Shown here: positions 2,899-32,429 of the stretch, piece by piece
How the letters are laid out: each line of letters starts with the position of its first letter
Numbering within the stretch: the first letter of the stretch is position 1
Origin: a bacterium
GTDB taxonomy: Bacteria > Fidelibacterota > UBA2242
Direction of reading: 5' to 3'
Length of the DNA: 33,893 nucleotides
Assembly (NCBI GenBank): GCA_018895675.1
Contig: JAHIOG010000495.1
Span: forward strand, 1 to 33,893
Made by a program: the position numbers and the translations under genes
The notes under the pieces: model-generated
Told to the model about the DNA's origin: nothing
Databases searched by the model: none
Seen by the model: the letters and a program-made list of their open reading frames with translations, nothing else

Positions 2899-2971
<73 letters not shown>

Positions 2972-2983
2972 CAAAGATAAAGA

Positions 2984-3005: not shown

Positions 3006-3015
3006 GCGTATTAAA

Positions 3016-10900: not shown

Positions 10901-12247
10901 TTACATATTTTCTATTATTTTTTTACCAAATTCAGAAGTTTTGAGTTTAGTCGCCCCTTTCATCTGACGTTCCAAATCATAAGTAACTGTTTTATTAGAA
11001 ATAGTTTTTTCTAAAGCTAATTCAATCAAATCTGCTGCTTCATTCCATCCCAAATGTTGAAGCATCATAACACCAGAAAGAATTAAAGAACTTGGATTCA
11101 CGATATCCATTCCGGTATATTTTGGAGCCGTACCATGAGTTGCTTCAAAAAGAGCCATTTCATCACCAATGTTTGCACCTGGAGCAAGTCCGAGTCCACC
11201 AACCTGGGCCGCACAAGCATCGGAAAGATAATCTCCATTCAGATTTGGTGTGGCAAACACACTATATTCTTCAGGACGGAGCAACACTTGCTGAAATGTC
11301 TGGTCGGCAATTCGATCATTAATTAAAATTTTCCCTTGAGGCATCTTTCCGTTATGTTCATCCCACAATTCCTGTTCTGTGATGATTTCCTCTCTGTATT
11401 CACTTATCGCAAGTTCATATCCCCAATCACGAAATGCTCCTTCGGTAAATTTCATTATATTACCCTTATGAACCAAAGTTACGCTAGGTTTATTCTTTTG
11501 AATCGCATAATCTATCGCTTTTCGTATTAATCGCTTTGTGCAGGTTACAGATATTGGTTTTATCCCAATACCACTGTCCCTCCGAATATCTTTATTCAAA
11601 TTATCCTTTAAAAATTCAATTAACTTTATTGCATCTTCCGAATCCATTTGAAATTCGATACCCGCATAAACGTCCTCAGTATTTTCTCTGAATATTATAA
11701 CATCTAACTTTTCAGGCGCTTTTACTGGAGTAGGAACGCCTTGATACCATCTCACCGGACGGACACAAGCATAAAGATCTAATTTTTGACGTAATCCGAC
11801 ATTCAATGAGCGAAATCCTGGCGTAATAAATTTTGAACCACATTTTATACATTTCTCCGGGCGTTTTCCATTGATTCCGTCTTGTTCTTTGGAACATTCT
11901 AAACAGACATAATCGAATTTTCCAACTGGTGTTGTCAAAGGTCCTTTAATAGCGACTTTGTACTCCTTAATCGCTTTTAAAGTATCTTCCGGCAAAATAT
12001 CATCGTTACCATATTTCTTTAAAGCGGACAATCCGGCATGAATTTTAAACCATTCTATGCTTTTTGCCCCACTATAGGCCTTCTTTACAGCAGAATCGAT
12101 GACACTTTTTGTTGCTTTCCATATATCCGGACCAATTCCATCTCCCTCAATAAAAGGAATGATTGGATTATCAGGAACAGATATTTTACCATTTTTAAAC
12201 TCAATTTTTTTTCCAAGTTCCGGTTTTTTTAATAGTTTGTATTCCAT
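10901..12247 (-). CDS. icd: NADP-dependent isocitrate dehydrogenase (prokaryotic homodimeric type) with a Cys4 insertion
   Basis: Colinear with E. coli Icd over its length: [109 protein letters not shown] 34-aa insertion lies between PVG and FRSLNV. Confidence 0.95.
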
Positions 12248-15807: not shown

Positions 15808-17496
15808 CTAAACCGCATCATACTGGAAATAAACCGGCTGGAACATTTTACTCTTTACAATCTCAAGAAGATTTTCAGGTCTTTTTTCCCAGGCAATACC
15901 TTCAGAATATGCAACTTCGCAGACAGAGACGGCGATATGAGCTGAAATTTTCCTGATATCATTTAGATCAGGGTAAACTCTACCCTTTTTCAAATCCTCT
16001 TTACTAACCAAATTAGCCAGAGTTTTGGCAGCAGCATAGAACATGGAATCCGTTATTTTGGTTGCTTTACAAACAATAGCACCCAATCCAACTCCCGGAA
16101 AAATATACATATTATTCCCCTGACCAGTTGCATAAGTTTTTCCTTTGTATTTTATCGGTTCAAAAGGGCTTCCACTTGCATAAACAACATTGCCGTCCGT
16201 CCATTCATAAGCTTGAGAAGGAGTACATTCTGATTTTGATGTTGGATTTGACAGAGCGAAAATCACCGGGATATCCACATGTTTTTTCATTTCACGAACA
16301 ATTTTCTCATTGAATGCTCCGGGTTGCTTACTAACTCCCATAAGAATTGTCGGCTTTACATTCTTCACAGCATCCAGAAGTGTTTCGATATATTTTTCCT
16401 CACGGGCATACGGAATTTTATGTTCTGCAAGTTTATCTCCACGGGTAGTAGTAACAAGTCCTTTACTATCTAAAAACCAGAATCTTTTTCGGGCTTCCTG
16501 CTCTGATAGACCTTTCTCAACCATTCCTGCAACGATCATATCTGCAATTCCAACCGCTGCAGAACCTGCTCCTAAAAAGATAATCCTCTGGTCGGATAGT
16601 TTTCCCTTTGTTATCCTTAAGCCTGCCAGAAGTCCGGCAAGAGCAACTCCTCCGGTTCCCTGTATATCATCATTAAAACATAAAAGCTTTTCTCGGTATT
16701 TTTTTAACAATGGAAAAGCATGATCATTAGTAAAATCCTCAAATTGGATCAAAGCTTTGGGCCAGCGTTCGTGTGCAGCTACAACACATTCATCGATTAT
16801 ATCATAATACTTTTCGCCAGTAATGCGACGATGCTTTTCTCCCAGATATAACTGGTCTTTCAGTAGATTTTCATTGTCAGTTCCAACATCAATCACCACA
16901 GGTAATGTTCCTGATGGGTGTATTCCTGCACAAGCAACATATAAAGCTAATTTTCCTATGGGAATACCTATTCCACTTGCACCCAGATCGCCAAGTCCTA
17001 ATATTCTACTACCATCAGTGACGACAATAACGTTTACTTTTTCTTCTGGCCAATTATTAATTAACTTTTTAAAATTTCCCTTTGCCTTTGCCGGCATGTA
17101 CATTCCTCTTGTTCGTCTGAAAATGTGACCATACTGCTGGCATGCCAATCCCACCGTTGGTGTATAAATAATCGGGGTCATCTCCTCTAAATTTCTCAGC
17201 AATAAAGCATAATAAAGAATTTCATTGCGGTCGTGCAGAGCTTCCAGAAAGATATATTTCCCAATATCGGTATCTTTACGGCGATAGTTCTCCGTTACCC
17301 TTTGAACCTGCTCTTCAAAAGTGGAAACATGAGGTGGTAATAACCCCTGAAGATTAAATTCTTCTCTCTCTTTTTCCGAAAAAGCTGTTCCCTTATTAAG
17401 AATAGGGTCCCTTACAAGGTCAATTCCTTTTTTAGAAACCTGTAACACCTCTTGTTTATGATGTTCCATCGTAGAATGTTCCTTCGGATTGGGCAT
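15808..17496 (-). CDS. maeA: NAD(P)-dependent malic enzyme, large (E. coli MaeA/SfcA-like, eukaryotic-type) form
   Basis: 562 aa: LNKGTAF...ER..F.L.GLLPP, IYTPTVG.AC, VVTDGSRILGLGDLG..GIGIPIGKL.LY, FNDDIQGTG.V.LAG, FLGAGSA..GIA, LSNPTSKSEC. Confidence 0.9.
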   Translation of the reverse strand: MPNPKEHSTMEHHKQEVLQVSKKGIDLVRDPILNKGTAFSEKEREEFNLQGLLPPHVSTFEEQVQRVTENYRRKDTDIGKYIFLEALHDRNEILYYALLLRNLEEMTPIIYTPTVGLACQQYGHIFRRTRGMYMPAKAKGNFKKLINNWPEEKVNVIVVTDGSRILGLGDLGASGIGIPIGKLALYVACAGIHPSGTLPVVIDVGTDNENLLKDQLYLGEKHRRITGEKYYDIIDECVVAAHERWPKALIQFEDFTNDHAFPLLKKYREKLLCFNDDIQGTGGVALAGLLAGLRITKGKLSDQRIIFLGAGSAAVGIADMIVAGMVEKGLSEQEARKRFWFLDSKGLVTTTRGDKLAEHKIPYAREEKYIETLLDAVKNVKPTILMGVSKQPGAFNEKIVREMKKHVDIPVIFALSNPTSKSECTPSQAYEWTDGNVVYASGSPFEPIKYKGKTYATGQGNNMYIFPGVGLGAIVCKATKITDSMFYAAAKTLANLVSKEDLKKGRVYPDLNDIRKISAHIAVSVCEVAYSEGIAWEKRPENLLEIVKSKMFQPVYFQYDAV

Positions 17497-17534
17497 TTAC
17501 ACTCCTTATTTTTAAATTTTTTAAAAAGAACAAT

Positions 17535-17746
17535 AACGGGTTAATCAACAAATAAATCGTCAGGCTTAATATGATTTTTTACTTTTTTATCGACCATTGG
17601 TCCATGAATAAATTTTCTCTTATGAAATATACGTGGCGCAGTTCTTGAAACAGTTAAGCTGGCATCCATTATAAAAAGGATTTTTTCATTACCTTTCTCT
17701 TTTAAAGTGGCTTCCATAGCATCTTGCAAATTAGTCTCCCGAGTAA
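17535..17746. repeat. ~210-bp duplication, copy 1 (matches 20055-20266 at about 92%)
   Basis: Aligned by eye at a constant offset of 2520 nt. I counted about 16 mismatches over ~200 nt and no indels. It covers the last ~65 codons, the stop and 6 nt of 3' flank of the larA-like gene. Confidence 0.85.
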
Positions 17747-17879
17747 CTACAAACCTTATACTCTTTAGCGGTTTTAATGTTAAATCGAAAACCTCTTTTT
17801 CTTTGACAATATTCAAAATTTTAGTGTCTTCAAAGTGTTTAAAAAGCTTTCTGGGATAATGATAAACTATCGCATACAA
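17541..17879 (-). pseudogene. 3'-terminal remnant of a larA-like gene (TTG-initiated 112-aa track ORF)
   Basis: The C-terminal 65 aa (TNLQDAMEATLKEKGNEKILFIMDASLTVSRTAPRIFHKRKFIHGPMVDKKVKNHIKPDDLFVD) parallel the C-terminus of the 445-aa LarA-like protein. Only weak similarity lies upstream (LKPLKSIRFVV vs LKPELLNRIFI). There is no N-terminal catalytic domain, and the 'start' is TTG. Confidence 0.6.
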
Positions 17880-18248: not shown

Positions 18249-19964
18249 TTACAGAGCATTTACCAATTTTCCAAGCAGCGCTGGTTTCGATAATAGATCC
18301 GATGACTTCAAAAACTCACAGCGTTGCTCAAAACGATCTTTTATTAATGCTATATATCCTTCTGGATTGGTGCGCTTATATGGATTATATTTTTCATAAT
18401 AACCTGGAAGTAACTTATCGATAGATTCTTTTGTAGGAATCATCGCTCCAGGTAATAATTTCCAATCTTCCCACTCAATTTGGTCCATCAAAATACCAGT
18501 GTGAATCGTAAGCGAAGTCTGGAGTTCAATATTTTCCAAATGCTCATCAGAGGATTTCCAGTATCCAGATGAATTGAAAGTGTAACACTCTGCACCCGTT
18601 TCTAACACTTTTAGAAATGCCTCGACATCTTTATAAAGTTCATAAACTCTAAATGGATTTGCAAATGGTTCAAAAACCAATTTTGCTAATTCCTCCTCTG
18701 TTACATTTTCGGCTCTGCTTCTTTTTGTAATTAATGCCGCTCCCATCGCAACAGCAAGATATTTGTCTTTATATTTTAGTGCAGGCGGTAAAATTGTATC
18801 TTTCATGAGCCAGACCAGTGCTTTAGGAAAACTACACCTATTTACCCATTTTCCAAGAAGGTCGCGGTCAAAAAGAGCCCGTCCATTTGCCTGACGAATA
18901 TCACGTCCGAGGGGAAGTAACTTTCCATCGTTTTTTATCAAAGCGTGATTCATAACCGCAAGACAATACTCCCAATCCGGATGGTCTGTATTTCGACTAT
19001 CTGTTTTATCAAAGAGCGAAGGTTCCCAAACGCGACAAACCTTTCCTTCTGTGTCAATCTGAAATGCATCATCGTGAAGCGTCGCTTTCTTAAAACCTTT
19101 AGGTAATGTACCTCCATTATCATGTGAATTTGTATGAGAAGACTTTCCAGTTCCCGAAAGTCCAAAAAATGCTATAGATTTCTTTCCTAAAACTCTATGT
19201 TCTTTATTATCACATTCAGAAAAATCAATCTCTTTAATGCCGCCATGACAAGCAGCCATTCCCAATCTCATACCGGAAGACCACGCAAGAGTCAGGGTCC
19301 CTTTTTTACGTTCACCAAAATAGCGCATCCCCAAATTGAAAATCACATTATGTTTTTCGTCAACTAAGGCAAGTTGCGGCGCACCAACATTATGATAATA
19401 TGGGTCATCACATGTCCATTCGTTAAATGCCACAATTATAATATCCTGAATTGGCAGAACTTTGCTGTTTTCATATTCTTCTGTCAATTCGATTGGGTTA
19501 AAATTTGACAACCAGTTAAACACATTACTTGCATCGTTTGTTGATGTAACGAAAGTTGCCTTTATCATTAAATCGGGATCCAATCCTATCACTGCTTCTG
19601 CTTTAATAAGGTCATAATGTTCAAGCTGATATATTGCTTCTCTAATATCACCTTCAACCTTTTTCTTATCTGCTGCAGGAATCCGATTATAAAATCTCCT
19701 CGCTTTTGCAGTTCTACCAATAATTTTACCATGACAATCATTTAGGACCTTTGCTCCTTTTGGCAGTCCAAAAAGCGCAGCTGTCCGAGGATATATTTCT
19801 AAGTCTGTTTCTGATACACCAGCTTGGTTTTTTGCCATTTCATAAGCTTCAGCAATGTTTATCTTTCGCACTTTTGGATTTAAAAGTACTGCTTCAGCAA
19901 TTGCTCGAAGCGGAGACATTTCTGTTAAATCTTTGTAATACTTATCACTTGGTAAACTCGACAT
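18249..19964 (-). CDS. pckA: phosphoenolpyruvate carboxykinase, divergent ATP-type
   Basis: 571 aa with a kinase-1a P-loop FFGLSGTGKSS, a YFGERKKG block (canonical YAGEMKKG) and an LHDDAF block (canonical IGDDEH). Order and spacing fit ATP-PEPCK, but several signature residues differ. Confidence 0.75.
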   Translation of the reverse strand: MSSLPSDKYYKDLTEMSPLRAIAEAVLLNPKVRKINIAEAYEMAKNQAGVSETDLEIYPRTAALFGLPKGAKVLNDCHGKIIGRTAKARRFYNRIPAADKKKVEGDIREAIYQLEHYDLIKAEAVIGLDPDLMIKATFVTSTNDASNVFNWLSNFNPIELTEEYENSKVLPIQDIIIVAFNEWTCDDPYYHNVGAPQLALVDEKHNVIFNLGMRYFGERKKGTLTLAWSSGMRLGMAACHGGIKEIDFSECDNKEHRVLGKKSIAFFGLSGTGKSSHTNSHDNGGTLPKGFKKATLHDDAFQIDTEGKVCRVWEPSLFDKTDSRNTDHPDWEYCLAVMNHALIKNDGKLLPLGRDIRQANGRALFDRDLLGKWVNRCSFPKALVWLMKDTILPPALKYKDKYLAVAMGAALITKRSRAENVTEEELAKLVFEPFANPFRVYELYKDVEAFLKVLETGAECYTFNSSGYWKSSDEHLENIELQTSLTIHTGILMDQIEWEDWKLLPGAMIPTKESIDKLLPGYYEKYNPYKRTNPEGYIALIKDRFEQRCEFLKSSDLLSKPALLGKLVNAL

Positions 19965-20054
19965 AATTCATTTCCTTCCTTTTAAATAAAAAATTCATCA
20001 CAATTGAAATTACAAATGGTATATAATTATTTATTGGTAGTCAGAAAGCATAGG

Positions 20055-20266
20055 AACGGGTTAATCGACAAATAAATCGTCAAGCTTAATATGATTTTTT
20101 ACTTTTTTATCTACCGTCGGTCCATGAATAAATTTTCTCTTATGAAATATACGCTGTGCTATTCGTGGAACAGTTAAGCTGGCATCCATCATAAAAAGGA
20201 TTTTTTCATTACCTTTCTCTTTTAAAGTGGCTTCTATAGCTTCCTGCAAATTAGTATACCCTTTAA
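20055..20266. repeat. ~210-bp duplication, copy 2 (intact larA-like 3' end)
   Basis: See copy 1 (17535-17746). Confidence 0.85.
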
Positions 20267-21398
20267 TAAATATTCTATTCAATAATTCTGGTTTTAAATT
20301 TGTGTATGCCCATAAGGATGCCCATTTCATAATTTCTGCCATTTTAGCTGCCTTATGATAACCCAATTTATATCCTTTTTCAATCTTATCAAAAACTTCA
20401 TCCGGGTTTCTGGCTTCACTCAATAATTTTATGAAACTCTCTCCACCTATACCTTTTCGACAACTCGAAACCAAAATGAGAATCCCATTTGGGTTCAACG
20501 CAAGTTTGCTATTATCAATTGCTTTCTGAGATTGGTAAAGGTCGATATCCATCGGATAAGGTGCAACTGCGACCACGATATCTGCCCTATCTCTGATTTC
20601 CACTGAAAATACGTCTTTTGCTTTTTCACATGCCAATTTGAATGCTTTGTGAGTTTCTCCACAGGCGCAATAATAGATTTTATGATCTTTATTCAGAACA
20701 GTTTGAATTGAAAAAATCTGTTTGTCTTTTGCTATACAATCATAGGCTTCTTTGATGTCGTCTCTAACCGGATTTCCTTCGGTTACAAGAGCTTTTGCTG
20801 TCGCATTCAAAGCCAGTTCATGATTTCGTTCAATAGTCTCATATCCGGAAATTCCGGGTAAAAAGGACTTTGCTCCACCAGTATAGCCTGCAAAATAATG
20901 AGGCTCAACCGATGTGATATAGACTATCTTTTCTGCTTCAATTACCAGTTTATTAAAAAAGACTTCAGTGCCATTTTTAGTTACACCAACAAAGACATTC
21001 CCAGCTTCATTCTTAGAATCGTGGGAAAATATTTTTTTTTCCAATTCGCGAAAATGATATCCAAAAATTTCAAGGTATTCATCTTTGCTTGGAGCTCTAT
21101 GAGCACCTGTAGCAACTAAGAACTTAATGCTTTTATTCAGTATTTTATCCCAGAGCAGGTCTATTATTCTCGCACTTGGTGTAGGTCTGGTAGCATCATT
21201 TATAATAAAGAGAATGGGCTCATTGCCTTTTGCAAAATCGTCAAAACTTTTAAAATCAACCGGGCTGTTTAATGCATCAAAGAGAACTTCTTTTTCAGGT
21301 CGAATTTCAACAGTATTCGGATATACTATTTCTCCGATATTTTGTTCGGGGAGAGATACTGTTAATTCTTCTCCCCAATAAGGAATTTTTATCTGCAT
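20061..21398 (-). CDS. LarA-like nickel-pincer-nucleotide-dependent 2-hydroxyacid racemase/epimerase family protein (DUF2088)
   Basis: 445 aa. Motifs match, as I recall them, the LarA catalytic and cofactor set: INDATRPTP (Arg), VATGAHR (His), EPHYFAGYTGGAKS (His plus the cofactor-tethering Lys), ERNHE (Ni-ligand His). The start ATG overlaps the upstream mdh stop (TAATG at 21396-21400). Confidence 0.8.
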   Translation of the reverse strand: MQIKIPYWGEELTVSLPEQNIGEIVYPNTVEIRPEKEVLFDALNSPVDFKSFDDFAKGNEPILFIINDATRPTPSARIIDLLWDKILNKSIKFLVATGAHRAPSKDEYLEIFGYHFRELEKKIFSHDSKNEAGNVFVGVTKNGTEVFFNKLVIEAEKIVYITSVEPHYFAGYTGGAKSFLPGISGYETIERNHELALNATAKALVTEGNPVRDDIKEAYDCIAKDKQIFSIQTVLNKDHKIYYCACGETHKAFKLACEKAKDVFSVEIRDRADIVVAVAPYPMDIDLYQSQKAIDNSKLALNPNGILILVSSCRKGIGGESFIKLLSEARNPDEVFDKIEKGYKLGYHKAAKMAEIMKWASLWAYTNLKPELLNRIFIKGYTNLQEAIEATLKEKGNEKILFMMDASLTVPRIAQRIFHKRKFIHGPTVDKKVKNHIKLDDLFVD

Positions 21399-22330
21399 TA
21401 AATTAATTGTTCAGATTCAATTTTTTCTATAACTTCTCTTACTTTATCAGCAGAAAGATGAAGAGCCTGCTTCTCTTCCGTTGTAAGTGATAATTCAATT
21501 ATTTTTTCAACACCATTTTTTCCAATTACAATCGGTACACCTGCAAATAGACCGTCGATTCCATATTCTCCCCTCAAATAGGCAGAACAGGGAACGATTC
21601 TGTTTCTGTCTCGCACAATGCATTCAACCATCTCAGCAGCAGAACTTCCGGGTGACCAGTAAGCACTACCGGTTTTAAGGTAGGCAACGATTTCTCCACC
21701 TGCTTTTCTGGTTCGTTCAATTAATCTGTCTATCTTGTCTTTTGGCAGCAAATCTGTAATCGGGATACCATGCACTGTGGAATATCTGGGTAATGGGACC
21801 ATAAGGTCTCCATGACCGCCAAGTACTAAAGCAGTTACATTTTTGGGACTGACTCCAAGTTCTTCAGCTATAAAATATCTGAATCTTGATGAATCCAGTA
21901 TGCCAGCCATCCCAATAACTTTTTTTAAGGCAAATCCTGTGACTTTTAGAGCAACATAAGCTAAAATATCAAGCGGATTTGTAACTGTGATCACCACAGC
22001 ATTAGGAGCATATTTAGCAATGCTTTCCGATACACTCTTCATAATTTTTACATTATCACGAAGCAAATCTTCCCTGGACATACCTGGCAATCTCGGTTTA
22101 CCGGCTGTTACAACAACCACTTCAGAATCTTTGATCATTGATATATCGGTATATCCATTAACAGATACATCGTATTTTCGGATAGGTGAGGCATGTACAA
22201 TATCCAAAGCTTTTCCTTCAGCCCATCCGTCGACAATATCAATTAATACTATATCTGAAACTTTTTTTTCAATTAAATATAGTGCTGTTGCTACACCAAC
22301 GTTTCCACTTCCAATAATACTAACTTTCAT
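21398..22330 (-). CDS. mdh: malate dehydrogenase (LDH-like, type 3 MDH)
   Basis: 310 aa: IIGSGNVG, TAGKPRLPGMSREDLL (Arg at the LDH/MDH discriminator position, so malate/oxaloacetate), TNPLD, GMAGILDSSRFR, GGHGDLMVPL, KTGSAYWSP. Confidence 0.9.
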   Translation of the reverse strand: MKVSIIGSGNVGVATALYLIEKKVSDIVLIDIVDGWAEGKALDIVHASPIRKYDVSVNGYTDISMIKDSEVVVVTAGKPRLPGMSREDLLRDNVKIMKSVSESIAKYAPNAVVITVTNPLDILAYVALKVTGFALKKVIGMAGILDSSRFRYFIAEELGVSPKNVTALVLGGHGDLMVPLPRYSTVHGIPITDLLPKDKIDRLIERTRKAGGEIVAYLKTGSAYWSPGSSAAEMVECIVRDRNRIVPCSAYLRGEYGIDGLFAGVPIVIGKNGVEKIIELSLTTEEKQALHLSADKVREVIEKIESEQLI

Positions 22331-22339
22331 GATGACCCC

Positions 22340-23263
22340 CTAAATTCCCATTGATTCAATAGTTTTATTGATTATATCCGCTGATACCTGCAGTTCTTTT
22401 CTTATAGGCAGGGATAATTCAAGTTCGATTATTTTCTCAACGCCATTCTTTCCAAGTTGAACTGGTACACCTAAACAAATATTTTTATAACCATACTCTC
22501 CATCAAGGCACGTCGGAACACATAGTATTGCTCTGGTATCATTTATGATTGCACCCACAGTTTCTGCTATGGAAGCACCGGGAGAATACATAGATGTCTG
22601 CCTTTTTAACAGTGATAGAATAGTTGTTCCTGCTTCCCTGGCTTCTGATATTATTTTATCAACTTTTTCTTTGGGAAGTAACTCATTGATCGGTATGCCA
22701 CAAACCCGAATAAATTCTGGAGGTATAACCATGAATTTATGATGACCTCCTAAAACAAGGGCACTTACTTCAACCGATGTAACGCCAAGTTCCTGTGCAG
22801 TATATTCACAAACCCGCGTAACATCAAGTTTCCCTGCAACTCCAATTACCTTCATTCTGTCAAATCCTGTCTTTTTAAAAGTGTAATAAGTTAAAGTTGT
22901 AACAGGTTCAGTTATAACAATAACGATTGATTTCGGAGCATACTTTTTGACATCTTCTATTATCGGATCAATAATCTTCACATTAACTTCAAGTAACTCA
23001 AGACGTAAGGTGTTGGGTTTTCTAACTTTACCTGCAGTTATTACAACAACTTTAGAGCCTTTAATATCTTCAATATGAGAAGATCCCTGAATTTTAATGT
23101 CATAACCCCGTAAAGGTGAAGCTTCAGCAAGGTCAAGTGCACTTCCTTCTGCTTTACCTTCTAAAATATCAATAAGCATAATATTCGCAATACCCATCTC
23201 AGCCAAATAAAATGCCGCTGCAACCCCTACATTGCCACTGCCAATAATTGAAACTTTCTCCAT
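22340..23263 (-). CDS. divergent LDH/MDH-family 2-hydroxyacid dehydrogenase (second mdh paralog)
   Basis: 307 aa on the same scaffold (IIGSGNVG, TAGKVRKP..LRLELL, GVAGKLDVTR, GGHHKFMV). Signature blocks are altered: TNPLD becomes TEPVT, GGHGD becomes GGHHK, and MSRDDL becomes TLRLEL. GGAGG RBS present. It ends 9 nt before mdh. Confidence 0.75.
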   Translation of the reverse strand: MEKVSIIGSGNVGVAAAFYLAEMGIANIMLIDILEGKAEGSALDLAEASPLRGYDIKIQGSSHIEDIKGSKVVVITAGKVRKPNTLRLELLEVNVKIIDPIIEDVKKYAPKSIVIVITEPVTTLTYYTFKKTGFDRMKVIGVAGKLDVTRVCEYTAQELGVTSVEVSALVLGGHHKFMVIPPEFIRVCGIPINELLPKEKVDKIISEAREAGTTILSLLKRQTSMYSPGASIAETVGAIINDTRAILCVPTCLDGEYGYKNICLGVPVQLGKNGVEKIIELELSLPIRKELQVSADIINKTIESMGI

Positions 23264-23692
23264 GATACCTCCTAATATATTATTATTAATAACCTTAAAA
23301 GATTATATTTTTTTATTTTAGTGATTTTTTCTTCTTTACCACAAGGAATTTCAACTACCATTTGGATTTCTATACAATATCAATTTCCTATTTACTTACA
23401 TCTTTTATGATTCTTAATATTTTAAATTAATTTATCCAATTATAAAAGAAATTTTATAGATATAAATATACCAAAAAAATCATCAAAATGGCTGAAGTAT
23501 AACATCCCCCTGAATTTTATTGAGAAAAGTAAACACTTCTGGAAGACCAAACCTAAAATATCATCGCTAAGAGAAATTTTCTTAGGTTGAGTCTTCTGAA
23601 AGCTATTTCCCTATCTTATCCTAAAATACTACTTATTATCAGCAAGTATTAAAGATTTATTGTGATTTTGAAATCAATAAAAAATTAATTAC

Positions 23693-25030
23693 CTAATTTA
23701 CTTTAGCTACTACTTTATGAAGTTCCGGATTCTTTTCACACTCTTTCTCAAATTCCCTATCACGAAGTGAATTTCTATAATAGGGCGATTGGAATCTGTA
23801 AGTATATCTTACCTTATTACCCCTCGATTTTTCGTAAAGAGCTACAACATCTTCTATAAAGACTCTTTCTTCATCTGTTGGAATTACATAAATCTTTACC
23901 TTGGAATCCTCAGCACTGATATCACATTCCGCATTTCTTGTCTTTGCAATCTTATTTTTATTTTTATCATATTTGATTCCCATAAAATCCAGACCATCCA
24001 GAGCCCTTGCCCTTATAAGATCGCACATCTCACCAACTCCTGCTGTAAAGACGATAGCATCAATACCACCTATTGCCGCTGCGTAGGCACCAATATATTT
24101 CCTAATTCTGTATGTCTCAATATCAAGTGCAAGTTTAGCTCTCTCATCGCCTCTCTCGGCTGCCTCGATTACTTCACGTCTATCATTATATTCACCTGTT
24201 ATACCCAGGATACCGGACTTTTTATTAAGTATTGAATTCATCTCATTGGCTGAATAGTTCTCCTTATCCATTATATAGAAATCAATAGCTGCATCATGGT
24301 CTCCAGCTCTCGTCCCCATCACCAATCCTTCTAACGGTGTAAATCCCATACTTGTATCAAAAGATATCCCATTTTTAACTGCATTCAAAGACACACCATT
24401 CCCAATGTGACATATGATAAGATTACATTCAAAAGGATCTTTTCCCAGGAGAACCGATGCCCTTCTTGAAACATAAAGAAGAGATGTCCCATGAAATCCA
24501 TATCTTCTTATTTTATATTTCTCATACCATTCATAAGGCAGAGCGTACGTAAATACATATTTAGGCATTGTTTGGTGCCATGCTGTATCCATAATTGCCA
24601 TATGTGGAACATTAGGTAACAACTCTTTTGCTGCTTCTATACCAAGTATATTTGGTAGATTATGAAGTGGTGCCAAATCTGCTAACTTCTTAAATTCCTC
24701 AACAACTTCATCGGTTATAATAACAGATTTAGCAAACCTCTCACCACCATGAACAACACGATGTCCAACTGCGGATATTCCCATAAGTTCCTTGATTACA
24801 CCCTCTTTTAGAGATGTAAGCATTTCAATAATAAGTTTTATCGCCTCGCGATGTGTTGGACACTCACTTTCAACCCTGACACTGTCCTGCCCAGTGACTT
24901 CCTGTATGCAAAAGCTGCCTTTACTTGTCACTCTCTCAACAATTCCAGTTGCAATAGTTTGCTTTTTGTTCCAGTCATATAGCCTATATTTCACAGATGA
25001 GCTTCCACAATTAAGGCATAATATGATCAT
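23693..25030 (-). CDS. ackA: acetate kinase with a ~45-aa C-terminal extension
   Basis: ILCLNCGSSSVKY, GHRVVHGG, FHGTS, ICHIGNG.S, GTR.GD.D, FTAGVGE, IPTDEE are all AckA/ASKHA signatures. The ATG overlaps the stop of the upstream REC-malic enzyme gene (ATGA at 25027-25030). Confidence 0.95.
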   Translation of the reverse strand: MIILCLNCGSSSVKYRLYDWNKKQTIATGIVERVTSKGSFCIQEVTGQDSVRVESECPTHREAIKLIIEMLTSLKEGVIKELMGISAVGHRVVHGGERFAKSVIITDEVVEEFKKLADLAPLHNLPNILGIEAAKELLPNVPHMAIMDTAWHQTMPKYVFTYALPYEWYEKYKIRRYGFHGTSLLYVSRRASVLLGKDPFECNLIICHIGNGVSLNAVKNGISFDTSMGFTPLEGLVMGTRAGDHDAAIDFYIMDKENYSANEMNSILNKKSGILGITGEYNDRREVIEAAERGDERAKLALDIETYRIRKYIGAYAAAIGGIDAIVFTAGVGEMCDLIRARALDGLDFMGIKYDKNKNKIAKTRNAECDISAEDSKVKIYVIPTDEERVFIEDVVALYEKSRGNKVRYTYRFQSPYYRNSLRDREFEKECEKNPELHKVVAKVN

Positions 25031-26778
25031 TTCGCCTCCTGTTTTTTAGGCATTTTTATAAAACCACCTTTCATTAATGACTCAGTTTCTTCCCGAGCAA
25101 GTTTTATCATGGTTTCCGCCTTCTTATACAATTCCTCTCTTGACATCATTATTCTGGCAACACCTTGTTCGATTGCTTTCATTCCCACAGCAGTCGCTTC
25201 TCTTGGATAAACTTCCCATTCATCCATACTGGGGATTATGTACTCTTCTGAAAAACCTTTATCTTCAGCACATTTTGCGAGCTCGTAAGCTGCCGCTATA
25301 CACATCTCATCTGTTATTGTTTTTGCCATTACATCAAGAGTTCCCCTAAATATTCCAGGAAATCCCAGAGAATTGTTGACCTGATTAGGAAAATCCGATC
25401 TTCCGGTTGCAACTATTTTTGCGCCAGCCTCTTTTGCTTCCCAGGGCCATATCTCTGGAACAGGATTGGCACATGCAAAAACTATTGCATCGTTTGCCAT
25501 GCTTTTTACCCACTCAGGTTTAATTACACCTGGCCCGGATTTCGACAAAGCAATACAGACATCTGCACCTTTCAGAGCTTCAGGAATTCCTCCTATTCTT
25601 CCTTCGACATTTGTTTTTTCACACATTTCCCATTTCTCTTTATTCTCTGGATTATCAAGGTCTTTCCTATTTTTATGAAGTATACCCTTAGTATCGACCA
25701 TTATTATATTTTCAGGATTAACACCTGCACTAATTATAACTCTTGCAACACACAAATTCGAAGCACCGGCTCCTATCATTGTTATCTTTGCTTCTCCTAT
25801 CTCTTTCTCAACAAATTTTAATGCATTTATTAATCCAGCTAAAGTTACTGCCGCTGTTCCTTGCTGGTCATCATGCCACACAGGAATATTCATTTCTTTT
25901 CTTAATCGGTCCAAAATATAGAAGCACTTCGGTTTAGCAATATCCTCCAGATTTATTCCACCAAATGTTGGCTTCAACCACTTACATGCAGTAATTATTT
26001 CTTCTGGATCCTTGGTATCTAACATTATAGGAAAAGCGTCAACACCACCTAAATATTTAAAAAGGATTGCCTTTCCCTCCATTACAGGCAAGCCGGCTTC
26101 AGGTCCTATATCACCAAGACCTAAAACTCTTGTTCCATCAGATACAACTGCTACAAGATTACCCTTACTTGTATGCTCATAAACCTTTTGAGGATTCTTG
26201 TTAATATCACGGCAAGGTTCAGCAACACCAGGTGTATACCAGATTGCAAAATCATTGAAATCCCTGATACAGCATTTAGGTACAACTGAAATCTTACCAT
26301 GATAATAAGGATGCAACTCCATAGCATCCTCTCCCGGTTTCCTGGCCTTGGCAAGAAGTTCTTCAAGAGATACTGTTTTGGTAAGTAGCTTAACTCTTTC
26401 TAAGAGCACTTTAGCCGGAACCGGCTTTTCAAGAAAGTCATCTACGGGCAGAAGTTGTGTACCGGCTATTTCCTTAAAATTTGTTTCCATTATCTTCTGG
26501 ATACTAGTTATTATTAATATCGGTATCTTGGAACACTCAAAATATGGCGAATCCCTGTCCGGATTTCTTAGTTTATTAACGACTCCCAAACCAGCTGTAA
26601 TATGTTCCATCATAATATCGAGTACAATTAAGTCAGGCTTAACTTCCTTGACTTTTTCAAGACCCTCTTTTGCCGAATATGCGCAAGTACATTCATAAGA
26701 ATTTTTTTCCAGTATATTCTTGACTGCTTTTACGAAATCAACATCATCATCAATAATAAAGATTCTCTTTTTGTCCAT
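25027..26778 (-). CDS. response-regulator receiver domain fused to a NAD(P)-dependent malic enzyme (short prokaryotic type)
   Basis: 583 aa. Residues 1 to about 125 form a CheY-like REC (IFIIDDDVD, DLIVLDIMM, ILIITS, DDFLEKPV). Residues from about 150 to the end form a complete malic enzyme (YHGKISV, WYTPGVAEPC, VVSDGTRVLGLGDIGPEAGLPVMEGK, GGINLEDI, HDDQQGTAAV, MIGAGASN, FACANPVPE). AGGAGGG RBS present. Confidence 0.85.
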   Translation of the reverse strand: MDKKRIFIIDDDVDFVKAVKNILEKNSYECTCAYSAKEGLEKVKEVKPDLIVLDIMMEHITAGLGVVNKLRNPDRDSPYFECSKIPILIITSIQKIMETNFKEIAGTQLLPVDDFLEKPVPAKVLLERVKLLTKTVSLEELLAKARKPGEDAMELHPYYHGKISVVPKCCIRDFNDFAIWYTPGVAEPCRDINKNPQKVYEHTSKGNLVAVVSDGTRVLGLGDIGPEAGLPVMEGKAILFKYLGGVDAFPIMLDTKDPEEIITACKWLKPTFGGINLEDIAKPKCFYILDRLRKEMNIPVWHDDQQGTAAVTLAGLINALKFVEKEIGEAKITMIGAGASNLCVARVIISAGVNPENIIMVDTKGILHKNRKDLDNPENKEKWEMCEKTNVEGRIGGIPEALKGADVCIALSKSGPGVIKPEWVKSMANDAIVFACANPVPEIWPWEAKEAGAKIVATGRSDFPNQVNNSLGFPGIFRGTLDVMAKTITDEMCIAAAYELAKCAEDKGFSEEYIIPSMDEWEVYPREATAVGMKAIEQGVARIMMSREELYKKAETMIKLAREETESLMKGGFIKMPKKQEAK

Positions 26779-26935: not shown

Positions 26936-27724
26936 CTAAACATATTTTCGTATCTTTGCCAATATATGTTCAGACTTTATTGGTTTAGGAATAAACTCAT
27001 CTACCTTATGTGTACCAGCCATAGTACGCGCAAAATCGGGCTTTCTAAATTGCTTATCAAGAGCTGTTAGCATAATAATGGGTATATTATATGTTCGAGT
27101 ATCTGTCTTTAATTCACGTGATACTGTAAAGCCGTCTTTATCTGGAAGCATAGCATCTATTAATATAAGATCAGGCAGCATCGCCTTAGCCATCTTAATT
27201 CCCCCATTTGCAGTATCTGCAGACTGTACTTCAAAATCATTCGATTCTAATAACTCCCGCATTGAGCGTACAAAATCTATATCACCATCAATAATCAGTA
27301 CTTTCTTTTTATTTGTCGGTTCAGAGACAGTGATTCTCCTTCGAGTAATCAATGCATAGACTCTTGCAAGTAATTCTTTTGGATCAATGGGTTTCTCCGC
27401 AAAATCATCGGCATTGTGGTATAAAGCGATTCTCTCTGCGTATTTTTTTCCCTCAAATTCGGTACTGACAGATGTCAAAATAAGGATTGGTATCTCCAAT
27501 AAGCCTGTCATTTTCTTTAACTCACTGCATATTGAAAAACCATCTTCACCCGGCAACATTATGTCCAATATTACAAGGTCAGGTTTCTCTTTTTTAAACT
27601 TCCGTAGCGCCTCTTTTCCATCGAATGCCGTAACAATATCATGTCCGTTACTTTCCAATATTTTAGTTGTAGATTTGCAAAAATCGACATCATCATCTAC
27701 GAGTAAAATTTTTGCTCCCTTCAT
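26936..27724 (-). CDS. tandem double-receiver (REC-REC) response regulator without an output domain
   Basis: 262 aa. REC1: ILLVDDDVD...DLVILDIMLPGEDG...ILILTS...FAEKP. REC2: VLIIDGDID...DLILIDAMLPDKDG...IIMLTA...FIPKP. GGAGGAG RBS present. The start overlaps the upstream kinase stop (ATGA at 27721-27724). Confidence 0.85.
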   Translation of the reverse strand: MKGAKILLVDDDVDFCKSTTKILESNGHDIVTAFDGKEALRKFKKEKPDLVILDIMLPGEDGFSICSELKKMTGLLEIPILILTSVSTEFEGKKYAERIALYHNADDFAEKPIDPKELLARVYALITRRRITVSEPTNKKKVLIIDGDIDFVRSMRELLESNDFEVQSADTANGGIKMAKAMLPDLILIDAMLPDKDGFTVSRELKTDTRTYNIPIIMLTALDKQFRKPDFARTMAGTHKVDEFIPKPIKSEHILAKIRKYV

Positions 27725-28824
27725 TTCTCCTCCTCACTTTTTGGCAAAAGCACTGTAAAAGTACTCCCCTTCTCAGGTTTACTTGTTACCTTGATAGTAG
27801 CGGAATGAGCATCCATTATCCTTTTTACAATTGATAAGCCCAAGCCGGTACTATCAGATTTAAATTCAACTTGATAAAATTGTTCGAAGATAAAAGGCAA
27901 TTTATCCTCTGGAATTCCGATACCATTATCAGAAATACTCACCTCTATATATCCATTCTTTTCTTTTGCACCAACAAACAGACTTCCACCATAATTACCA
28001 TATTTTATTCCATTATCAACCAAATTTAAGAACGCCTGTTCCAGAGTTTCCTTATCAGCAGAAATTGTAGGAAGATTTTCAGGAATATCCATCTTTAGAG
28101 TAATGTTCTTTTCCTTTGCAATTGTCTGCATCAAATTAAAAATATTCGTGAAAATTGAAGTTATATTTACCGATGCCAATTTTTTTACAATCCTATTAGC
28201 ATCTATCTTTGATAGATTAAGCCAGTCCTTGATTAAATATATCAGCTGGTCAATGCGAATTTTAGACCTCTCCAGCATCTCTCTTTGTTCATCATTGACT
28301 TCACCAGCCATACCACCGAGAATTACTTCAAAATATTGCTGCACAGCAACAAGAGGAGTTCTAAGTTGATGTGAAACCATACTAATGAATCCTTCTCTCA
28401 TTTCATTTTTCTCTTGAAGTAAGCGATTAGATTCAATAGTCAATCGCCTTTTCTCAAGGGCTCTTTTAGTGATCAGTCGTAGCTCTTCAGGAGTAAACGG
28501 CTTAGGCAAAAAATCGTATGCGCCTTTTTTCATCGATTCGATTGCCGAATCTATTGACGCATAACCCGTTATCACTATAGTAACAATTTCCGGGTCAATT
28601 TTTTTAATCTCTTCAAGCACAACCATACCACTTATCCCGGGCATTTTCAGGTCAACAAGCACAAGATCGGGATTTATATCTTTAACCTTTTGCATGCCAG
28701 AAATACCATCGCCTGCAATATCTACTATATAACCACTTTTCACGTATGTCTGCACACATGCATCACACATGGATTCATCATCATCAATAATAAGTATTGT
28801 AATATTTTCTGTTCTATTAATCAT
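27721..28824 (-). CDS. REC-HisKA-HATPase_c histidine kinase whose only input domain is a receiver
   Basis: ILIIDDDES...DLVLVDLKMPGISG...VITGYAS...DFLPKPF, then a coiled linker, the H-box SHQLRTPL, N box LVDNGIKY, and G boxes DNGIGI and GLGLSI. There is no TM, PAS or GAF segment. The track ORF begins at a TTG (28917); I prefer the ATG at 28822-28824, but neither has a good RBS. Confidence 0.85.
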   Translation of the reverse strand: MINRTENITILIIDDDESMCDACVQTYVKSGYIVDIAGDGISGMQKVKDINPDLVLVDLKMPGISGMVVLEEIKKIDPEIVTIVITGYASIDSAIESMKKGAYDFLPKPFTPEELRLITKRALEKRRLTIESNRLLQEKNEMREGFISMVSHQLRTPLVAVQQYFEVILGGMAGEVNDEQREMLERSKIRIDQLIYLIKDWLNLSKIDANRIVKKLASVNITSIFTNIFNLMQTIAKEKNITLKMDIPENLPTISADKETLEQAFLNLVDNGIKYGNYGGSLFVGAKEKNGYIEVSISDNGIGIPEDKLPFIFEQFYQVEFKSDSTGLGLSIVKRIMDAHSATIKVTSKPEKGSTFTVLLPKSEEEK

Positions 28825-29043
28825 CTTACTTGTGGTAGCGTCAAATTCTATACCAAATAACAAAACAGCCTGATGGATCAAATCCCAATTGGCTGTTATA
28901 CAATAACTTGCGCCCAAAATATATATTCAGGCAGCTATTTTTGAATAGTTAGAGTTGCTTATTATGTGAAGAATTCGACCTCAGTCATGGAGAATTATTC
29001 CCCAGAGTTGCCTCGAGTACATCTGGTACATCGTTTGCATTTT

Positions 29044-30876
29044 TCATTTCATCAATATGAACAATAAAACTGCAAATCCGATGATAATCCAGAGTATATA
29101 AATTGGTAAAATACCCCTGTGTATCTTACTTAAACCCGAGTAAAGAGAAAAAGAGATGGTTTTTCCCCATTCATAAGGATCAAATGCTCGTGCCTTTGCT
29201 TTTTTATACAGGTACTTTAAAAAGCCAGTAGATTCAATAGTATCGTAAAAATGAATTCCTGATATTCTTAGCTCCTCACAATCGATAGGCTCTCCACCCA
29301 CGAAAATATCCCCCTCTTTCAAAGCCTTAATGTTTCCTAATCGATAGAAGATTATCCCGCATACCAGGCTGAAAGCAAGAAGAGTAGTGGCTAATGTAGG
29401 GCTCCACATCCCATTAAGGTTAATAGCTTCCCCAATTCCACTGAATCTTACTTCCAACACCGGTCCAATAAAATATTTTAAAGGGAATTGAGCAAAGATC
29501 CCAAAAAACACACAGAAAAGAGCAAGGATTACCAAAGGAACTTTCATCGAGAATTCCACTTCCTTCGGTTCCATGATCTCTTTTGGCATTTCACCCAAGA
29601 AGACCGAATGAAGAACTTTTACAAAAGAGGCCAGGGTTAATGCACTACCAAACATGGCGGCAATTAAAAAAATAGGCCATATTGAACCACCTACATCGAT
29701 TATCCCTTGATACACCATCCATTTGGAGACAAACCCATTTAAGGGGGGAATCCCGGATATGGAGAGGGCCGCAATCACACAGGTAATGAAAGTCACCGGC
29801 ATCGTCCTGGCTAAACCGCCTAACCTTTCTAAGTTAGTTGTTTTTATTCTGTGTTCAACCGCCCCGCAACACAGAAAGAGACAACATTTGTAAATGACGT
29901 TATTCAACATGTGAAATAACCCGCCAGCAATCCCTATTAGTGTTCCGGTGCCGATCCCCAAAACCATATACCCGACTTGCGAGACGGCATGATAAGAGAG
30001 CAACTTTCTCAGATCTTTTTGAACCAGGGCCATCATCACAGCGGCAATTATGGTGACTGCACCGATGCTCATCAAGAGAACCTTCATACTATAATCCATT
30101 ATGAAGAGGTCTAAAGCGATCCTAACCAAGAGGTAAATTCCAAGTAGCTTATCGAGCGCTGCTGGGAGAAAAGCCATAACTGGTACGTGGGCAACTTCAG
30201 CTGCATCCGGAATCCAGCTATGAAAAGGCATAGCACCTGCCTTAGCAACGGCTCCAATTGTCAGAAGAATAAAAGCTGCTGTAGACAATCCATCTTCTAT
30301 GGGGATTATTATCTCATTCATTGTTATGGTGCCTTTAAGATGCCAGATAATAACCACACCCAATAACATGAGAAAATCTGAACCTCCTACGATGATAATA
30401 CTCTTTAATGCCGCTTTTCCAGAGCCAGACCCACTAATATCTATAAGAAGATATAACAATACCGGCATAATACTCCAAAAAATCAGTAGAATAACCAGAT
30501 TGTTAGAAAGGATAGAACCATTAGCAATCCCCACCGTCCAAAGTAGATAGATGTAATATTCTTTCAAATGATATTTGCCTTTCATCTGTTTTAGAGAATA
30601 GATTGTGATTAACAATCCGAAAAACGAGCAAGCAAGGAGAATGAAGGCGCTAAAGTGGTAGGAGATAAGATCAAAATTTATTTGCGCAGAAGAGAGGGTA
30701 ATCCACTCTATCTGCAATCTGAGTTCATTCAAAAGTAGGATTTTCAAAGCCACAGCAGTGGTCAGTAGCATCCCAATAAAAGTGAATACCTCCCTGATTC
30801 GCTGCCAAGGAACAATTAGACATATAAATCCTATAGTTATTGGCAATATAATCGGAATGAGAAGAATCAAATTCAT
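29044..30876 (-). CDS. NuoL/HyfB/MrpD-like proton-translocating antiporter-type membrane subunit of a group 4 hydrogenase
   Basis: About 610-aa polytopic protein with antiporter-like blocks (WIPDAAEVAHVPVMAFL, SQVGYMVLGIG, HMLNNVIYKCCLF). The track ORF starts at 30936, inside the upstream gene. The ATG at 30874-30876 follows AGGAG and sits 2 nt after the upstream stop. Confidence 0.8.
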   Translation of the reverse strand: MNLILLIPIILPITIGFICLIVPWQRIREVFTFIGMLLTTAVALKILLLNELRLQIEWITLSSAQINFDLISYHFSAFILLACSFFGLLITIYSLKQMKGKYHLKEYYIYLLWTVGIANGSILSNNLVILLIFWSIMPVLLYLLIDISGSGSGKAALKSIIIVGGSDFLMLLGVVIIWHLKGTITMNEIIIPIEDGLSTAAFILLTIGAVAKAGAMPFHSWIPDAAEVAHVPVMAFLPAALDKLLGIYLLVRIALDLFIMDYSMKVLLMSIGAVTIIAAVMMALVQKDLRKLLSYHAVSQVGYMVLGIGTGTLIGIAGGLFHMLNNVIYKCCLFLCCGAVEHRIKTTNLERLGGLARTMPVTFITCVIAALSISGIPPLNGFVSKWMVYQGIIDVGGSIWPIFLIAAMFGSALTLASFVKVLHSVFLGEMPKEIMEPKEVEFSMKVPLVILALFCVFFGIFAQFPLKYFIGPVLEVRFSGIGEAINLNGMWSPTLATTLLAFSLVCGIIFYRLGNIKALKEGDIFVGGEPIDCEELRISGIHFYDTIESTGFLKYLYKKAKARAFDPYEWGKTISFSLYSGLSKIHRGILPIYILWIIIGFAVLLFILMK

Positions 30877-30878
30877 TT

Positions 30879-31814
30879 TTACTCTCCTATCAGTGCCAGA
30901 ATCATCCCGACAACCGCAAGCGGAGTCACAAGCCACCAGAAGAACTTAATTGCCTGATCAATACGGAGGCGAGGATGAGTTGTTTTGATTAATATTATTA
31001 GAAGAAGAATTGCCAGATATTCAACCAGTACAATTAGAATTCCTTTTATATTGAAATTAATTCCACCGAAAAAAAGAGAAATCAAAAAGAAGGGTAAGAT
31101 AAATAACATCATAGCATTGGTTAATTTGAATATAGCAAGCGAGACGCCGGAATATTCTGCCAGAGTGCCCCCAATAATTTCTGTTTCTGCCTCCGGAATA
31201 TCGAAAGGTATGTAGGTGAGTTTAGCCTGAATACAAGGGAGACAGACGATAAAAGCAATTACACACGAAGGATTTCCCACTAAAACTCCCTGAATGGATT
31301 GAAATGTGATAATCTCTCCCAAGAGTATTGATTTGACCTTCAATATAACGGTAATAATTGCAATGAGAAATGGCAGTTCATATGCTAATATCATTTTCAT
31401 TTCCCTGCTAGCGCCTATGACTCCAAAAGGATTTCGCGAAGAAGAACCACCCATAATTAAAGCAAGAGAAGGTAGAATCAATAAGTAAAGCACTACAATC
31501 AAGTCACCTACAAAACTTACTTCCTGGTTTATGTTTACTCTCCAGATTATGGTCGATACCAGAGTGATGCCGGCTAATCCTAAAAGAGGAGCCAATAAAA
31601 AACCAGCCTTTCTGCTCCCTCTGGGTATTATCATCGTTTTGCCCATCAGTTTGAGAACATCGGCATAACACTGATACCAGGGTGGTCCTATTCTACTTTG
31701 GATTCGTGCGGCTATCTTTCTATCGACCCAACAGAAGAAAAGGCCGAAGACACAAGTAAAAATTAAACCTGGAAAGATAATTGTATAGAATATGGCTCTT
31801 AAAATGTCATCCAT
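30879..31814 (-). CDS. NuoH/HycD/EchB-like membrane subunit of a group 4 hydrogenase
   Basis: 311 aa, about 8 TM segments, with RKI.AR.Q.R.GP, FD.PEAE.E and EYSG motifs of the NuoH/HycD family. It overlaps the upstream gene by 16 nt. Confidence 0.85.
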   Translation of the reverse strand: MDDILRAIFYTIIFPGLIFTCVFGLFFCWVDRKIAARIQSRIGPPWYQCYADVLKLMGKTMIIPRGSRKAGFLLAPLLGLAGITLVSTIIWRVNINQEVSFVGDLIVVLYLLILPSLALIMGGSSSRNPFGVIGASREMKMILAYELPFLIAIITVILKVKSILLGEIITFQSIQGVLVGNPSCVIAFIVCLPCIQAKLTYIPFDIPEAETEIIGGTLAEYSGVSLAIFKLTNAMMLFILPFFLISLFFGGINFNIKGILIVLVEYLAILLLIILIKTTHPRLRIDQAIKFFWWLVTPLAVVGMILALIGE

Positions 31815-32278: not shown

Positions 32279-32429
32279 GACTGCTATCCCCTTAAATTAA
32301 CCGCAAAGTTAGCTGAGTGGTTGTAAAACATGTAAGTGTAATAAAAACTCAGTAATTTTTGTACCTTCTTTGTGTTCTCTACATTTAAAAAGTTTGTGCT
32401 TTCAAATGTGCTATTTGCCAATTTAATAC

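Follow-up and report, generated by a model that had tools for sequence, protein, structure and literature searches.

The 33,893 nucleotide stretch of bacterial DNA analysed here (positions 1 to 33,893 of contig JAHIOG010000495.1, GenBank assembly GCA_018895675.1; referred to below as the window) carries a trio of adjacent genes that encode a divergent paralog of malate dehydrogenase (MDHp), a canonical malate dehydrogenase (MDH) and a homolog of the lactate racemase LarA (LarAH). Judged from the sequences, we consider it fairly probable that LarAH is a racemase of malate that depends on nickel-pincer nucleotide (NPN) as cofactor and is co-translated with both dehydrogenases. Malate, or else a C4 2-hydroxy-dicarboxylate that very closely resembles it, would be the substrate, and the role proposed for LarAH in the cell is meant in the same conditional sense. 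For LarAH itself this repeats a prediction published in 2020 for the whole of its phylogenetic group. What goes beyond the literature that could be searched is the invariant three gene module, the clade of MDHp proteins with an asparagine to glutamate replacement, and a C-terminal tail specific to the LarAHs linked to the trio. The functional group said to be largest within the LarA superfamily is that of the malate racemases (MARs), and their cellular role was called open by their discoverers. The trio offers a direct route to the role of these enzymes in vivo, and to a step that may have been missed in the anaerobic tricarboxylic acid (TCA) or propionate pathways of uncultured marine bacteria.

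The genes lie on the minus strand in the order MDHp, MDH, LarAH. MDHp (22340-23263, 307 aa) and MDH (21398-22330, 310 aa) both match the Pfam domains Ldh_1_N and Ldh_1_C, the former as a divergent paralog of the malate dehydrogenases that resemble lactate dehydrogenase (LDH), the latter as an NAD-dependent, LDH-like (type 3) enzyme. LarAH (20061-21398, 445 aa) matches Lar_N (E 2e-48) and LarA_C (E 9e-15). MDHp and MDH are separated by a spacer of 9 nt (22331..22339), giving a junction that reads TAG-GGGGTCATC-ATG and includes a G-rich run resembling a Shine-Dalgarno sequence. The junction between MDH and LarAH is ...AATTTAATGCAG, where the final A of the TAA stop doubles as the A of the ATG; in TTTAATGCAG the MDH stop and the LarAH start share this one base (TAATG, 1-nt overlap). 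An AGGAGG ribosome-binding site is found 6 nt 5′ of the MDHp ATG, and the AT-rich intergenic region 5′ of the trio (23264..23692, minus strand, 429 nt) contains a promoter-like TTTATA-16-TATAAT at 23466-23439, which as the product of a consensus scan is weak evidence. Scans for promoters and terminators within the trio gave nothing above chance. The three genes most likely form one operon, or an operon-like co-translated unit, of an uncultured anaerobe from the FCB group that is most probably a marine member of Cloacimonadota. All coordinates and junctions of the original prediction, which had described an mdh paralog, a 9-nt gap, a canonical mdh and a TAATG overlap into a LarA homolog, were reproduced.

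By sequence, the solved structure closest to LarAH is the malate racemase Mar2 of Thermoanaerobacterium thermosaccharolyticum (PDB 6D6Z, E 1e-57), which ranks ahead of the lactate racemases. Alignment to LarA of Lactiplantibacillus plantarum recovered all of the cofactor and catalytic residues that had been noted as apparently retained, namely the tethering lysine in GGAKS and the catalytic and nickel-binding histidines. The NPN-binding residues K177 (the tether), H193 (the nickel ligand), R71 and D68 correspond to Lys184, His200, Arg75 and Asp72 of LarA, and the catalytic H100 and H167, together with Y288, Q289 and K292, correspond to His108, His174, Tyr294, Gln295 and Lys298. The tether, the nickel ligand, R71, D68 and both catalytic histidines are invariant across 67 homologs, and the conservation of the first two argues for use of the NPN cofactor. 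At the positions that discriminate between substrates LarAH has Y175 and F176 (LarA numbering) followed by G346-Y-H348-K349, a G-x-H-K motif that is identical to that of Group 04 of the superfamily and aligns with GAHK of Mar2 and GPHK of Mar1. Histidine or glutamine followed by lysine at the positions of LarA W358 and T359 is the published signature of malate racemases (PMC11770544, PMC7583248), with the lysine as the proposed contact of the second carboxylate (PMC11770544); the corresponding signatures are W-T/E/Q in lactate racemases and H/Q-T in 2-hydroxyglutarate racemases.

An AlphaFold2 model of LarAH built with the 67 homologs has a pLDDT of 87 and a pTM of 0.85, and a Foldseek search with it gave significant matches to the LarA family only, the best being 2YJG, 5HUQ, 6C1W and 9EIA (TM 0.82-0.86). 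The last residues of the model, 420-445 (~20061-20141), form a basic C-terminal tail that is predicted to be disordered. LarAHs linked to the trio carry a basic C-terminal extension of 30-50 aa (R.LHK..RKFIH...), which is absent from a Group 04 copy on an L. plantarum plasmid and from related locus L027.

To place LarAH we aligned it with Groups 1 and 3-9 of Dataset S2 of Desguin et al. 2020, a set that does not include LarAH62, the third proven MAR, and built a neighbour-joining tree. LarAH and the metagenomic proteins related to it are placed within Group 04 and away from Groups 1-3, so that LarAH clusters with a group labelled “MAR?” and not with the lactate racemases. The activity predicted for this group is the racemisation of malate or of a closely related compound (Desguin et al. 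2020, Sci Rep 10:18123), and its members include LarAH4 of Lactobacillus zymae and proteins of Methanomassiliicoccales and Korarchaeum. LarAH is 38-46% identical to published Group 04 members and 24-32% to other groups; the values are 44-46% for the Methanomassiliicoccales members and the L. plantarum plasmid copy, and 29-32% for Mar1, Mar2 and LarA. It is identical to Group 04 in a 20-residue signature (D R H H Y F K H V Y Q Q K; G-Y-H-K-A-A-K), and has in common with it the motifs EPHYFAG.TGG.KSF, YPMD.DLYQSQKA and KGYKLGYHKAAKMAEI. The trio LarAH differs from the published Group 04 in its C-terminal tail, in the two MDH genes that are always 5′ of it, and in that larB, larC and larE (larBCE) are never adjacent. 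With Mar2 (PDB 6D6Z, 7S91) it shares the fold, the catalytic and NPN-binding residues and G-x-H-K, whereas it is 32% identical, belongs to another phylogenetic group and has F in place of K at loop position 176. With LarA (PDB 5HUQ) it shares the fold (TM 0.83-0.85), the tether lysine, the nickel-ligand histidine and the catalytic histidine pair, but it is 29% identical, the pocket changes from F-F...W-T to Y-F...H-K, and there is no adjacent larBCE operon. The designation as a candidate malate racemase is thus supported by the residues, the GxHK motif, the best structure match (Mar2), the best NCBIfam model (the LarAH6 family) and the Group 04 placement.

The arrangement of the trio was then compared across related loci (given L numbers below), which were gathered by looking up exact protein matches and by scanning species-representative genomes, and mapped with tblastn. 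Assemblies that carry the trio include GCA_964640055.1, GCA_027026255.1 and GCA_001771735.1. MDHp, MDH and LarAH occur in the same order in all 21 distinct related loci that have enough upstream flank, with LarAHs 44-91% identical to the window copy, and since the order is the same in 21 of 21 the arrangement is far above chance. The 1-nt stop/start overlap between MDH and LarAH, or a direct abutment, is kept among the relatives; in L027 the middle gene is frameshifted yet present. The metagenome-assembled genomes (MAGs) from which the loci come are mostly labelled Cloacimonadota, with others labelled Neomarinimicrobiota, Armatimonadota and Pseudomonadota, and protein matches add the labels WOR-3, Edwardsbacteria and “bacterium”. 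The genes that flank the trio vary, and include fumarase and succinyl-CoA synthetase, citrate lyase, genes for riboflavin and DnaK, FlpD, genes resembling heterodisulfide reductase (Hdr) and fumarate reductase, and [NiFe] hydrogenase. The fixed trio, which couples a racemase to the housekeeping MDH and a specialised paralog of it, provides independent genomic support for the substrate of the biochemically unverified Group 04. Among uncultured marine anaerobes it is found within clusters of the TCA or methylmalonyl-CoA type, a setting in which D-malate would be an intermediate of central metabolism.

The published gene-context table for Group 4 lists the COG0247 Fe-S oxidoreductase, LarE, LarC and LarB, the COG0277 FAD dehydrogenase and COG1908 (Desguin et al. 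2020), and MDH is unlisted for those groups of the table that could be searched. For Group 6 a malic enzyme is given in 15% of contexts, and MDH is not listed (Desguin et al. 2020). A 2025 preprint on Cloacimonadota describes an mmc-like cluster in marine members that contains MDH, after which come [NiFe] hydrogenase and heterodisulfide reductase; a racemase is not mentioned in it. Literature searches combining Cloacimonadota with lactate racemase gave no match, and a description of the trio was likewise not found. As the reconstructions of propionate metabolism in Cloacimonadota describe the MDH cluster without a racemase, the pathway maps may miss a step.

Additional LarA homologs were seen in some of these loci. 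A second, more distant copy (38-45% identical) is found near the trio in L024 (6697-8007, minus strand), L025 (6167-7450) and L017 (1603-2844), and the one in L025 reads Y-F...H-T at the discriminating positions, which is the pattern of the 2-hydroxyglutarate racemases. The L. plantarum plasmid pLP12-1 (NZ_CP018325.1; L022, 4573-12132) carries a Group 04-like LarAH that is annotated as a lactate racemase and is 46% identical to the window protein. Next to it on this mobilisable plasmid are larC, larE and genes for an anion permease and a LysR regulator. Together they are probably a cassette for malate racemisation, carried by a host that can be cultured, and a possible experimental proxy.

Of the two dehydrogenases, the one encoded directly upstream of LarAH is a regular member of its family. 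MDH scores 409 bits with TIGR01763 (cut-off 351.85) and 438 bits with PRK06223, and the motifs GKPRLPGMSR, TNP, LDSSRF and GGHGD are complete, in agreement with its earlier description as a canonical mdh. MDHp is 50% identical to this neighbour, fails TIGR01763 with 300 bits and passes the looser subfamily model PRK06223 (325 bits against 283). Among the matches listed in a search with MDHp is a clade of 94 proteins with 52-100% identity, after which the score falls from 340 to 291 bits where the canonical MDHs start. In the 92 full-length members of this clade R102, R109, D168 and R171 (LDH numbering) are invariant and H195 is present in 91. The asparagine of the TNP motif, found in 26 of 26 canonical sequences, is replaced by glutamate in all 92, and Gly196 is replaced by histidine in 88. 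We take this asparagine (Asn119 of Escherichia coli MDH, Asn140 in LDH numbering) to be a substrate-binding residue. The mobile loop of the clade reads V-R-K-P-(N/E)-(T/M)-(L/M)-R, compared to P-R-x-P-G-M-S-R in canonical enzymes. The window MDHp conforms to its clade, keeping R102, R109, D168, R171 and H195, with Glu for Asn140, His for Gly196 and the loop GKVRKPNTLR.

The fold and the residues R102, R109, D168, R171 and H195 are common to both dehydrogenases and to the LDH-like (type 3) bacterial MDHs (PDB 7AOB, 1GUY). The canonical copy conforms to these enzymes throughout, while MDHp departs from them in its TIGR01763 score, the Asn to Glu and Gly196 to His replacements, and the altered loop. 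Across the examined loci, members of the MDHp clade occur beside LarAH only; an MDH that is 46% identical to MDHp and falls just outside the clade stands alone beside ribosomal protein genes, without a LarAH. From these patterns of conservation MDHp is probably an active, conserved dehydrogenase with an altered pocket. Its earlier description as an mdh paralog holds as far as the LDH-like MDH family is concerned, but it is no simple duplicate, as its clade stands apart and has another residue at the substrate-binding position. It represents a new clade of the MDH family with a function that is directly testable.

Seven of the related loci encode, within 10 kb of the trio, a protein with FAD-binding-4 and FAD-oxidase-C domains that resembles LctD and GlcD. 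The top solved match of this flavoenzyme is LctD (7QH2_C, E 4e-77), which in the Ldh-Etf complex acts as the D-specific lactate dehydrogenase; next come glycolate oxidase and D-2-hydroxyglutarate dehydrogenase. It is usually accompanied by an Fe-S protein with CCG domains (TfrB/GlcF-like), and in L003 and L025 its gene is directly 3′ of LarAH. Enrichment in COG0247 and COG0277 is likewise seen in the gene contexts published for Group 4. In the lct clusters of Acetobacterium woodii and Anaerobutyricum (LctD, EtfAB, LctF) the LarA-type racemase LctF enables the oxidation of L-lactate via the D-specific LctD, and strains without the racemase use D-lactate only (PMC8914356). The trio may work in a similar way, with a racemase that supplies the D-isomer to a D-specific flavoenzyme and thereby allows NAD-independent oxidation of an L-2-hydroxyacid. 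It would differ from lct in that the substrate is presumed to be malate rather than lactate, in that the partners found in relatives are CCG Fe-S, Hdr-like and FlpD proteins rather than Etf, and in that the unit contains two NAD-dependent MDH genes while the window lacks the flavoenzyme.

Loaded with NPN, LarAH would interconvert L- and D-malate: a hydride would pass transiently to the cofactor, oxaloacetate would be the intermediate that stays bound, and the two histidines would serve as acid and base. In the proposed scheme it would turn L-malate, the product of fumarase or MDH in the TCA cycle or a methylmalonyl-CoA-type pathway, into D-malate. A D-specific FAD dehydrogenase (LctD/GlcD-like, with its CCG Fe-S partner) could then oxidise the D-malate without NAD, in parallel to the racemase and D-lactate dehydrogenase of lct. 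The D-specific flavoenzyme in related loci suggests that malate flows from L to D, and this disfavours the direction originally predicted, in which D-malate would feed an L-specific MDH. A wider proposal, which we regard as unlikely, is that the trio forms the core of an unrecognised malate counterpart of lct. Here L-malate from fumarase would be converted to D-malate and oxidised by a D-specific LctD/GlcD-like flavoenzyme that is connected to Fe-S proteins of the CCG/Hdr-like kind, to FlpD and to a [NiFe] hydrogenase. MDHp would then be a dehydrogenase of new specificity, or else a non-canonical subunit that functions solely together with the racemase. If true, this would bypass the strongly endergonic NAD-dependent oxidation of malate that limits syntrophic propionate and succinate oxidation.

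Two distant loci with the flavoenzyme gene also encode, near the trio, a lipoyl-carrier protein that is GcvH-like and a lipoate ligase that is LplA-like (L003, 15582-18132; L025, 7624-8058 and 13690-14742). These accompany the LctD-like flavoenzyme and the Fe-S proteins, and recall the lipoate-binding proteins that occur with Hdr-like complexes.

Several observations weigh against LarAH as a malate racemase. Both MAR equivalog scores are below their cut-offs: the top NCBIfam model is that of the LarAH6-family malate racemase, which gives 351.6 bits against 500, and the LarAH5-family model gives 280.2 bits against 462. The missed cut-offs put LarAH outside the two experimentally anchored MAR families, as a member of Group 04 instead. 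LarAH4 of L. zymae, the sole Group 04 protein tested in PMC7583248, was insoluble and after refolding from urea inactive, and no active Group 04 enzyme is reported in the literature that could be consulted. Tartrate, too, is epimerised by the Mar enzymes, and there is doubt about which substrate is native to Mar1, so the GxHK motif may not pin the substrate to malate. A malate racemase on its own also leaves the two dehydrogenases of the unit unaccounted for. Because the window contains neither an LctD/GlcD-like gene nor a fumarase, the L-to-D step, with its proposed sink for D-malate, is weakened for the source organism.

A further point against is the supply of the cofactor, as larBCE is unlinked to the trio both in the window and in 27 related loci. 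A Pfam search of all open reading frames (ORFs) of at least 100 aa found no larB, larC or larE in the window, and tblastn with L. plantarum LarB, LarC and LarE (queries from the plasmid loci L022 and L023; E <= 1e-3, then E <= 10) gave chance-level matches only in the window and in the 27 loci, over ~8-10 kb around the trio. This confirms the absence of these genes from the window as originally noted. With fragmentary MAGs and a local search the non-detection neither supports nor refutes the function, and in the published survey larB, larC or larE is adjacent to 28% of Group 4 genes and unlinked in most LarAH groups (Desguin et al. 2020).

Three other explanations of the trio were considered. 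It is possible, if on the unlikely side, that LarAH racemises or epimerises some other 2-hydroxy-dicarboxylate (tartrate, 2-hydroxyglutarate or citramalate, for example), with MDHp as the dedicated NAD-dependent dehydrogenase for that compound and MDH linked only through the meeting of the pathways at oxaloacetate or malate. The glutamate found in 92 of 92 MDHp members and the histidine found in 88 of 92 do point away from plain oxaloacetate or malate, the published MARs have tartrate as a side activity with malate maybe not native to Mar1, and L024 and L025 have a second LarAH beside the trio, the L025 copy being 2-hydroxyglutarate-like. However, the LarAH pocket equals that of the proven MARs at the discriminating positions, and MDHp keeps R109, R171 and also R102, the residue that selects oxaloacetate over pyruvate. 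The neighbourhood is moreover centred on malate, with two malic enzymes and a phosphoenolpyruvate carboxykinase (PEPCK)-like gene in the window and fumarase in relatives.

The lack of linked NPN biosynthesis genes could alternatively mean that LarAH has no cofactor or is not a racemase, and is for instance a structural or regulatory partner of the two MDHs or carries out some other hydride-mediated reaction. The non-detection of larBCE near 27 loci, set against the 28% adjacency in the published Group 4, is in keeping with this, and the clade-specific basic tail, predicted to be disordered, could be a docking element. We nevertheless consider it quite improbable, as the tether lysine, nickel-ligand histidine and catalytic histidines are strictly kept in 67 homologs, which is sensible only if the cofactor is used, while larBCE is unlinked in most LarAH groups and its absence cannot be shown from fragmentary MAGs. 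A lactate-handling unit, in which a lactate racemase is paired with MDHp as an L-lactate dehydrogenase, is barely credible. NCBI and JGI do name the homologs “nickel-dependent lactate racemase”, and LDH and MDH have a common fold. Against this, the lactate racemase residues F175, F176, W358 and T/E/Q359 read Y, F, H and K in LarAH, the NCBIfam equivalog for LarA lactate racemases (NF033504) gives 270 bits with a cut-off of 460, the tree position is away from Groups 1-3, and position 102 is Arg rather than Gln in both MDHp and MDH. The pairing of an ordinary lactate racemase with an LDH was accordingly ruled out on the signature residues, and an NPN-dependent malate racemase remains our preferred reading of LarAH.

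The trio is embedded in a long run of central-carbon genes on the minus strand of the window. An NAD-type malic enzyme (15808-17496, minus strand), identified by Pfam and NCBIfam, is the gene found directly 3′ of LarAH in most relatives. A second malic enzyme (25027-26778, minus strand) is fused to an N-terminal response-regulator receiver domain. In the window the position directly 3′ of LarAH is taken, after a 96-nt spacer, by a divergent PEPCK_ATP-like gene (18249-19964, minus strand). Its product scores 41.5 bits with Pfam and 91 bits with NCBIfam, where the cut-off is 369, and has no match among PDB sequences at E <= 0.001; it is 77-80% identical in most related Cloacimonadota-type loci and 97% in L021. 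The real activity of this protein is uncertain. The malate-centred neighbourhood that was originally described therefore stands with respect to two MDHs and two malic enzymes, with PEPCK present only as a divergent PEPCK-like gene. An Iso_dh gene at 10901-12247 was considered as a D-malate/tartrate dehydrogenase of the DmlA family and rejected, as it passes the equivalog for NADP-isocitrate dehydrogenase (663 bits, cut-off 567).

The gene order in relatives is LarAH, malic enzyme, PEPCK, whereas in the window and in L021 it is LarAH, PEPCK, LarAH remnant, malic enzyme. The remnant is part of a 216-nt direct repeat with copies that are 90-92% identical, in which the last ~200 nt of LarAH and the spacer downstream of it are duplicated 5′ of the malic enzyme gene. 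The upper copy (20045..20260, minus strand) comprises the 3′ end of LarAH and 16 nt downstream, and the lower copy (17525..17740, minus strand) is the remnant of the LarAH 3′ end, which ends an ORF at 17541-17879 and runs on into the ancestral spacer between LarAH and malic enzyme, as in L005. It looks as if the PEPCK-like gene was transposed between LarAH and the malic enzyme and the junction duplicated in the process. An assembly artefact was rejected as the origin of the repeat, because the copies are only 90-92% identical and both are present in the independent assembly L021, a 97% relative.

The receiver-malic enzyme (25027-26778) adjoins genes for a double-receiver protein (26936-27724) and a receiver-histidine kinase (27721-28917), which suggests that this enzyme is under phosphorelay control. 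It is kept in L005 (96%) and has a 54% match in L017, while L026 and L027 match the malic enzyme part only. On the 5′ side of the signalling genes is a module (29044-33869) that resembles a membrane-bound, complex-I-related [NiFe] hydrogenase, with a fused 30-kDa/49-kDa subunit and NuoB-, NuoH- and NuoL-like parts; related loci carry a HoxH-type [NiFe] hydrogenase beside the trio instead. At the edge of the metabolic cluster are an ORF for an IS200-like Y1 transposase and an ORF with a GIY-YIG nuclease domain (9417-9983 and 2905-3255).

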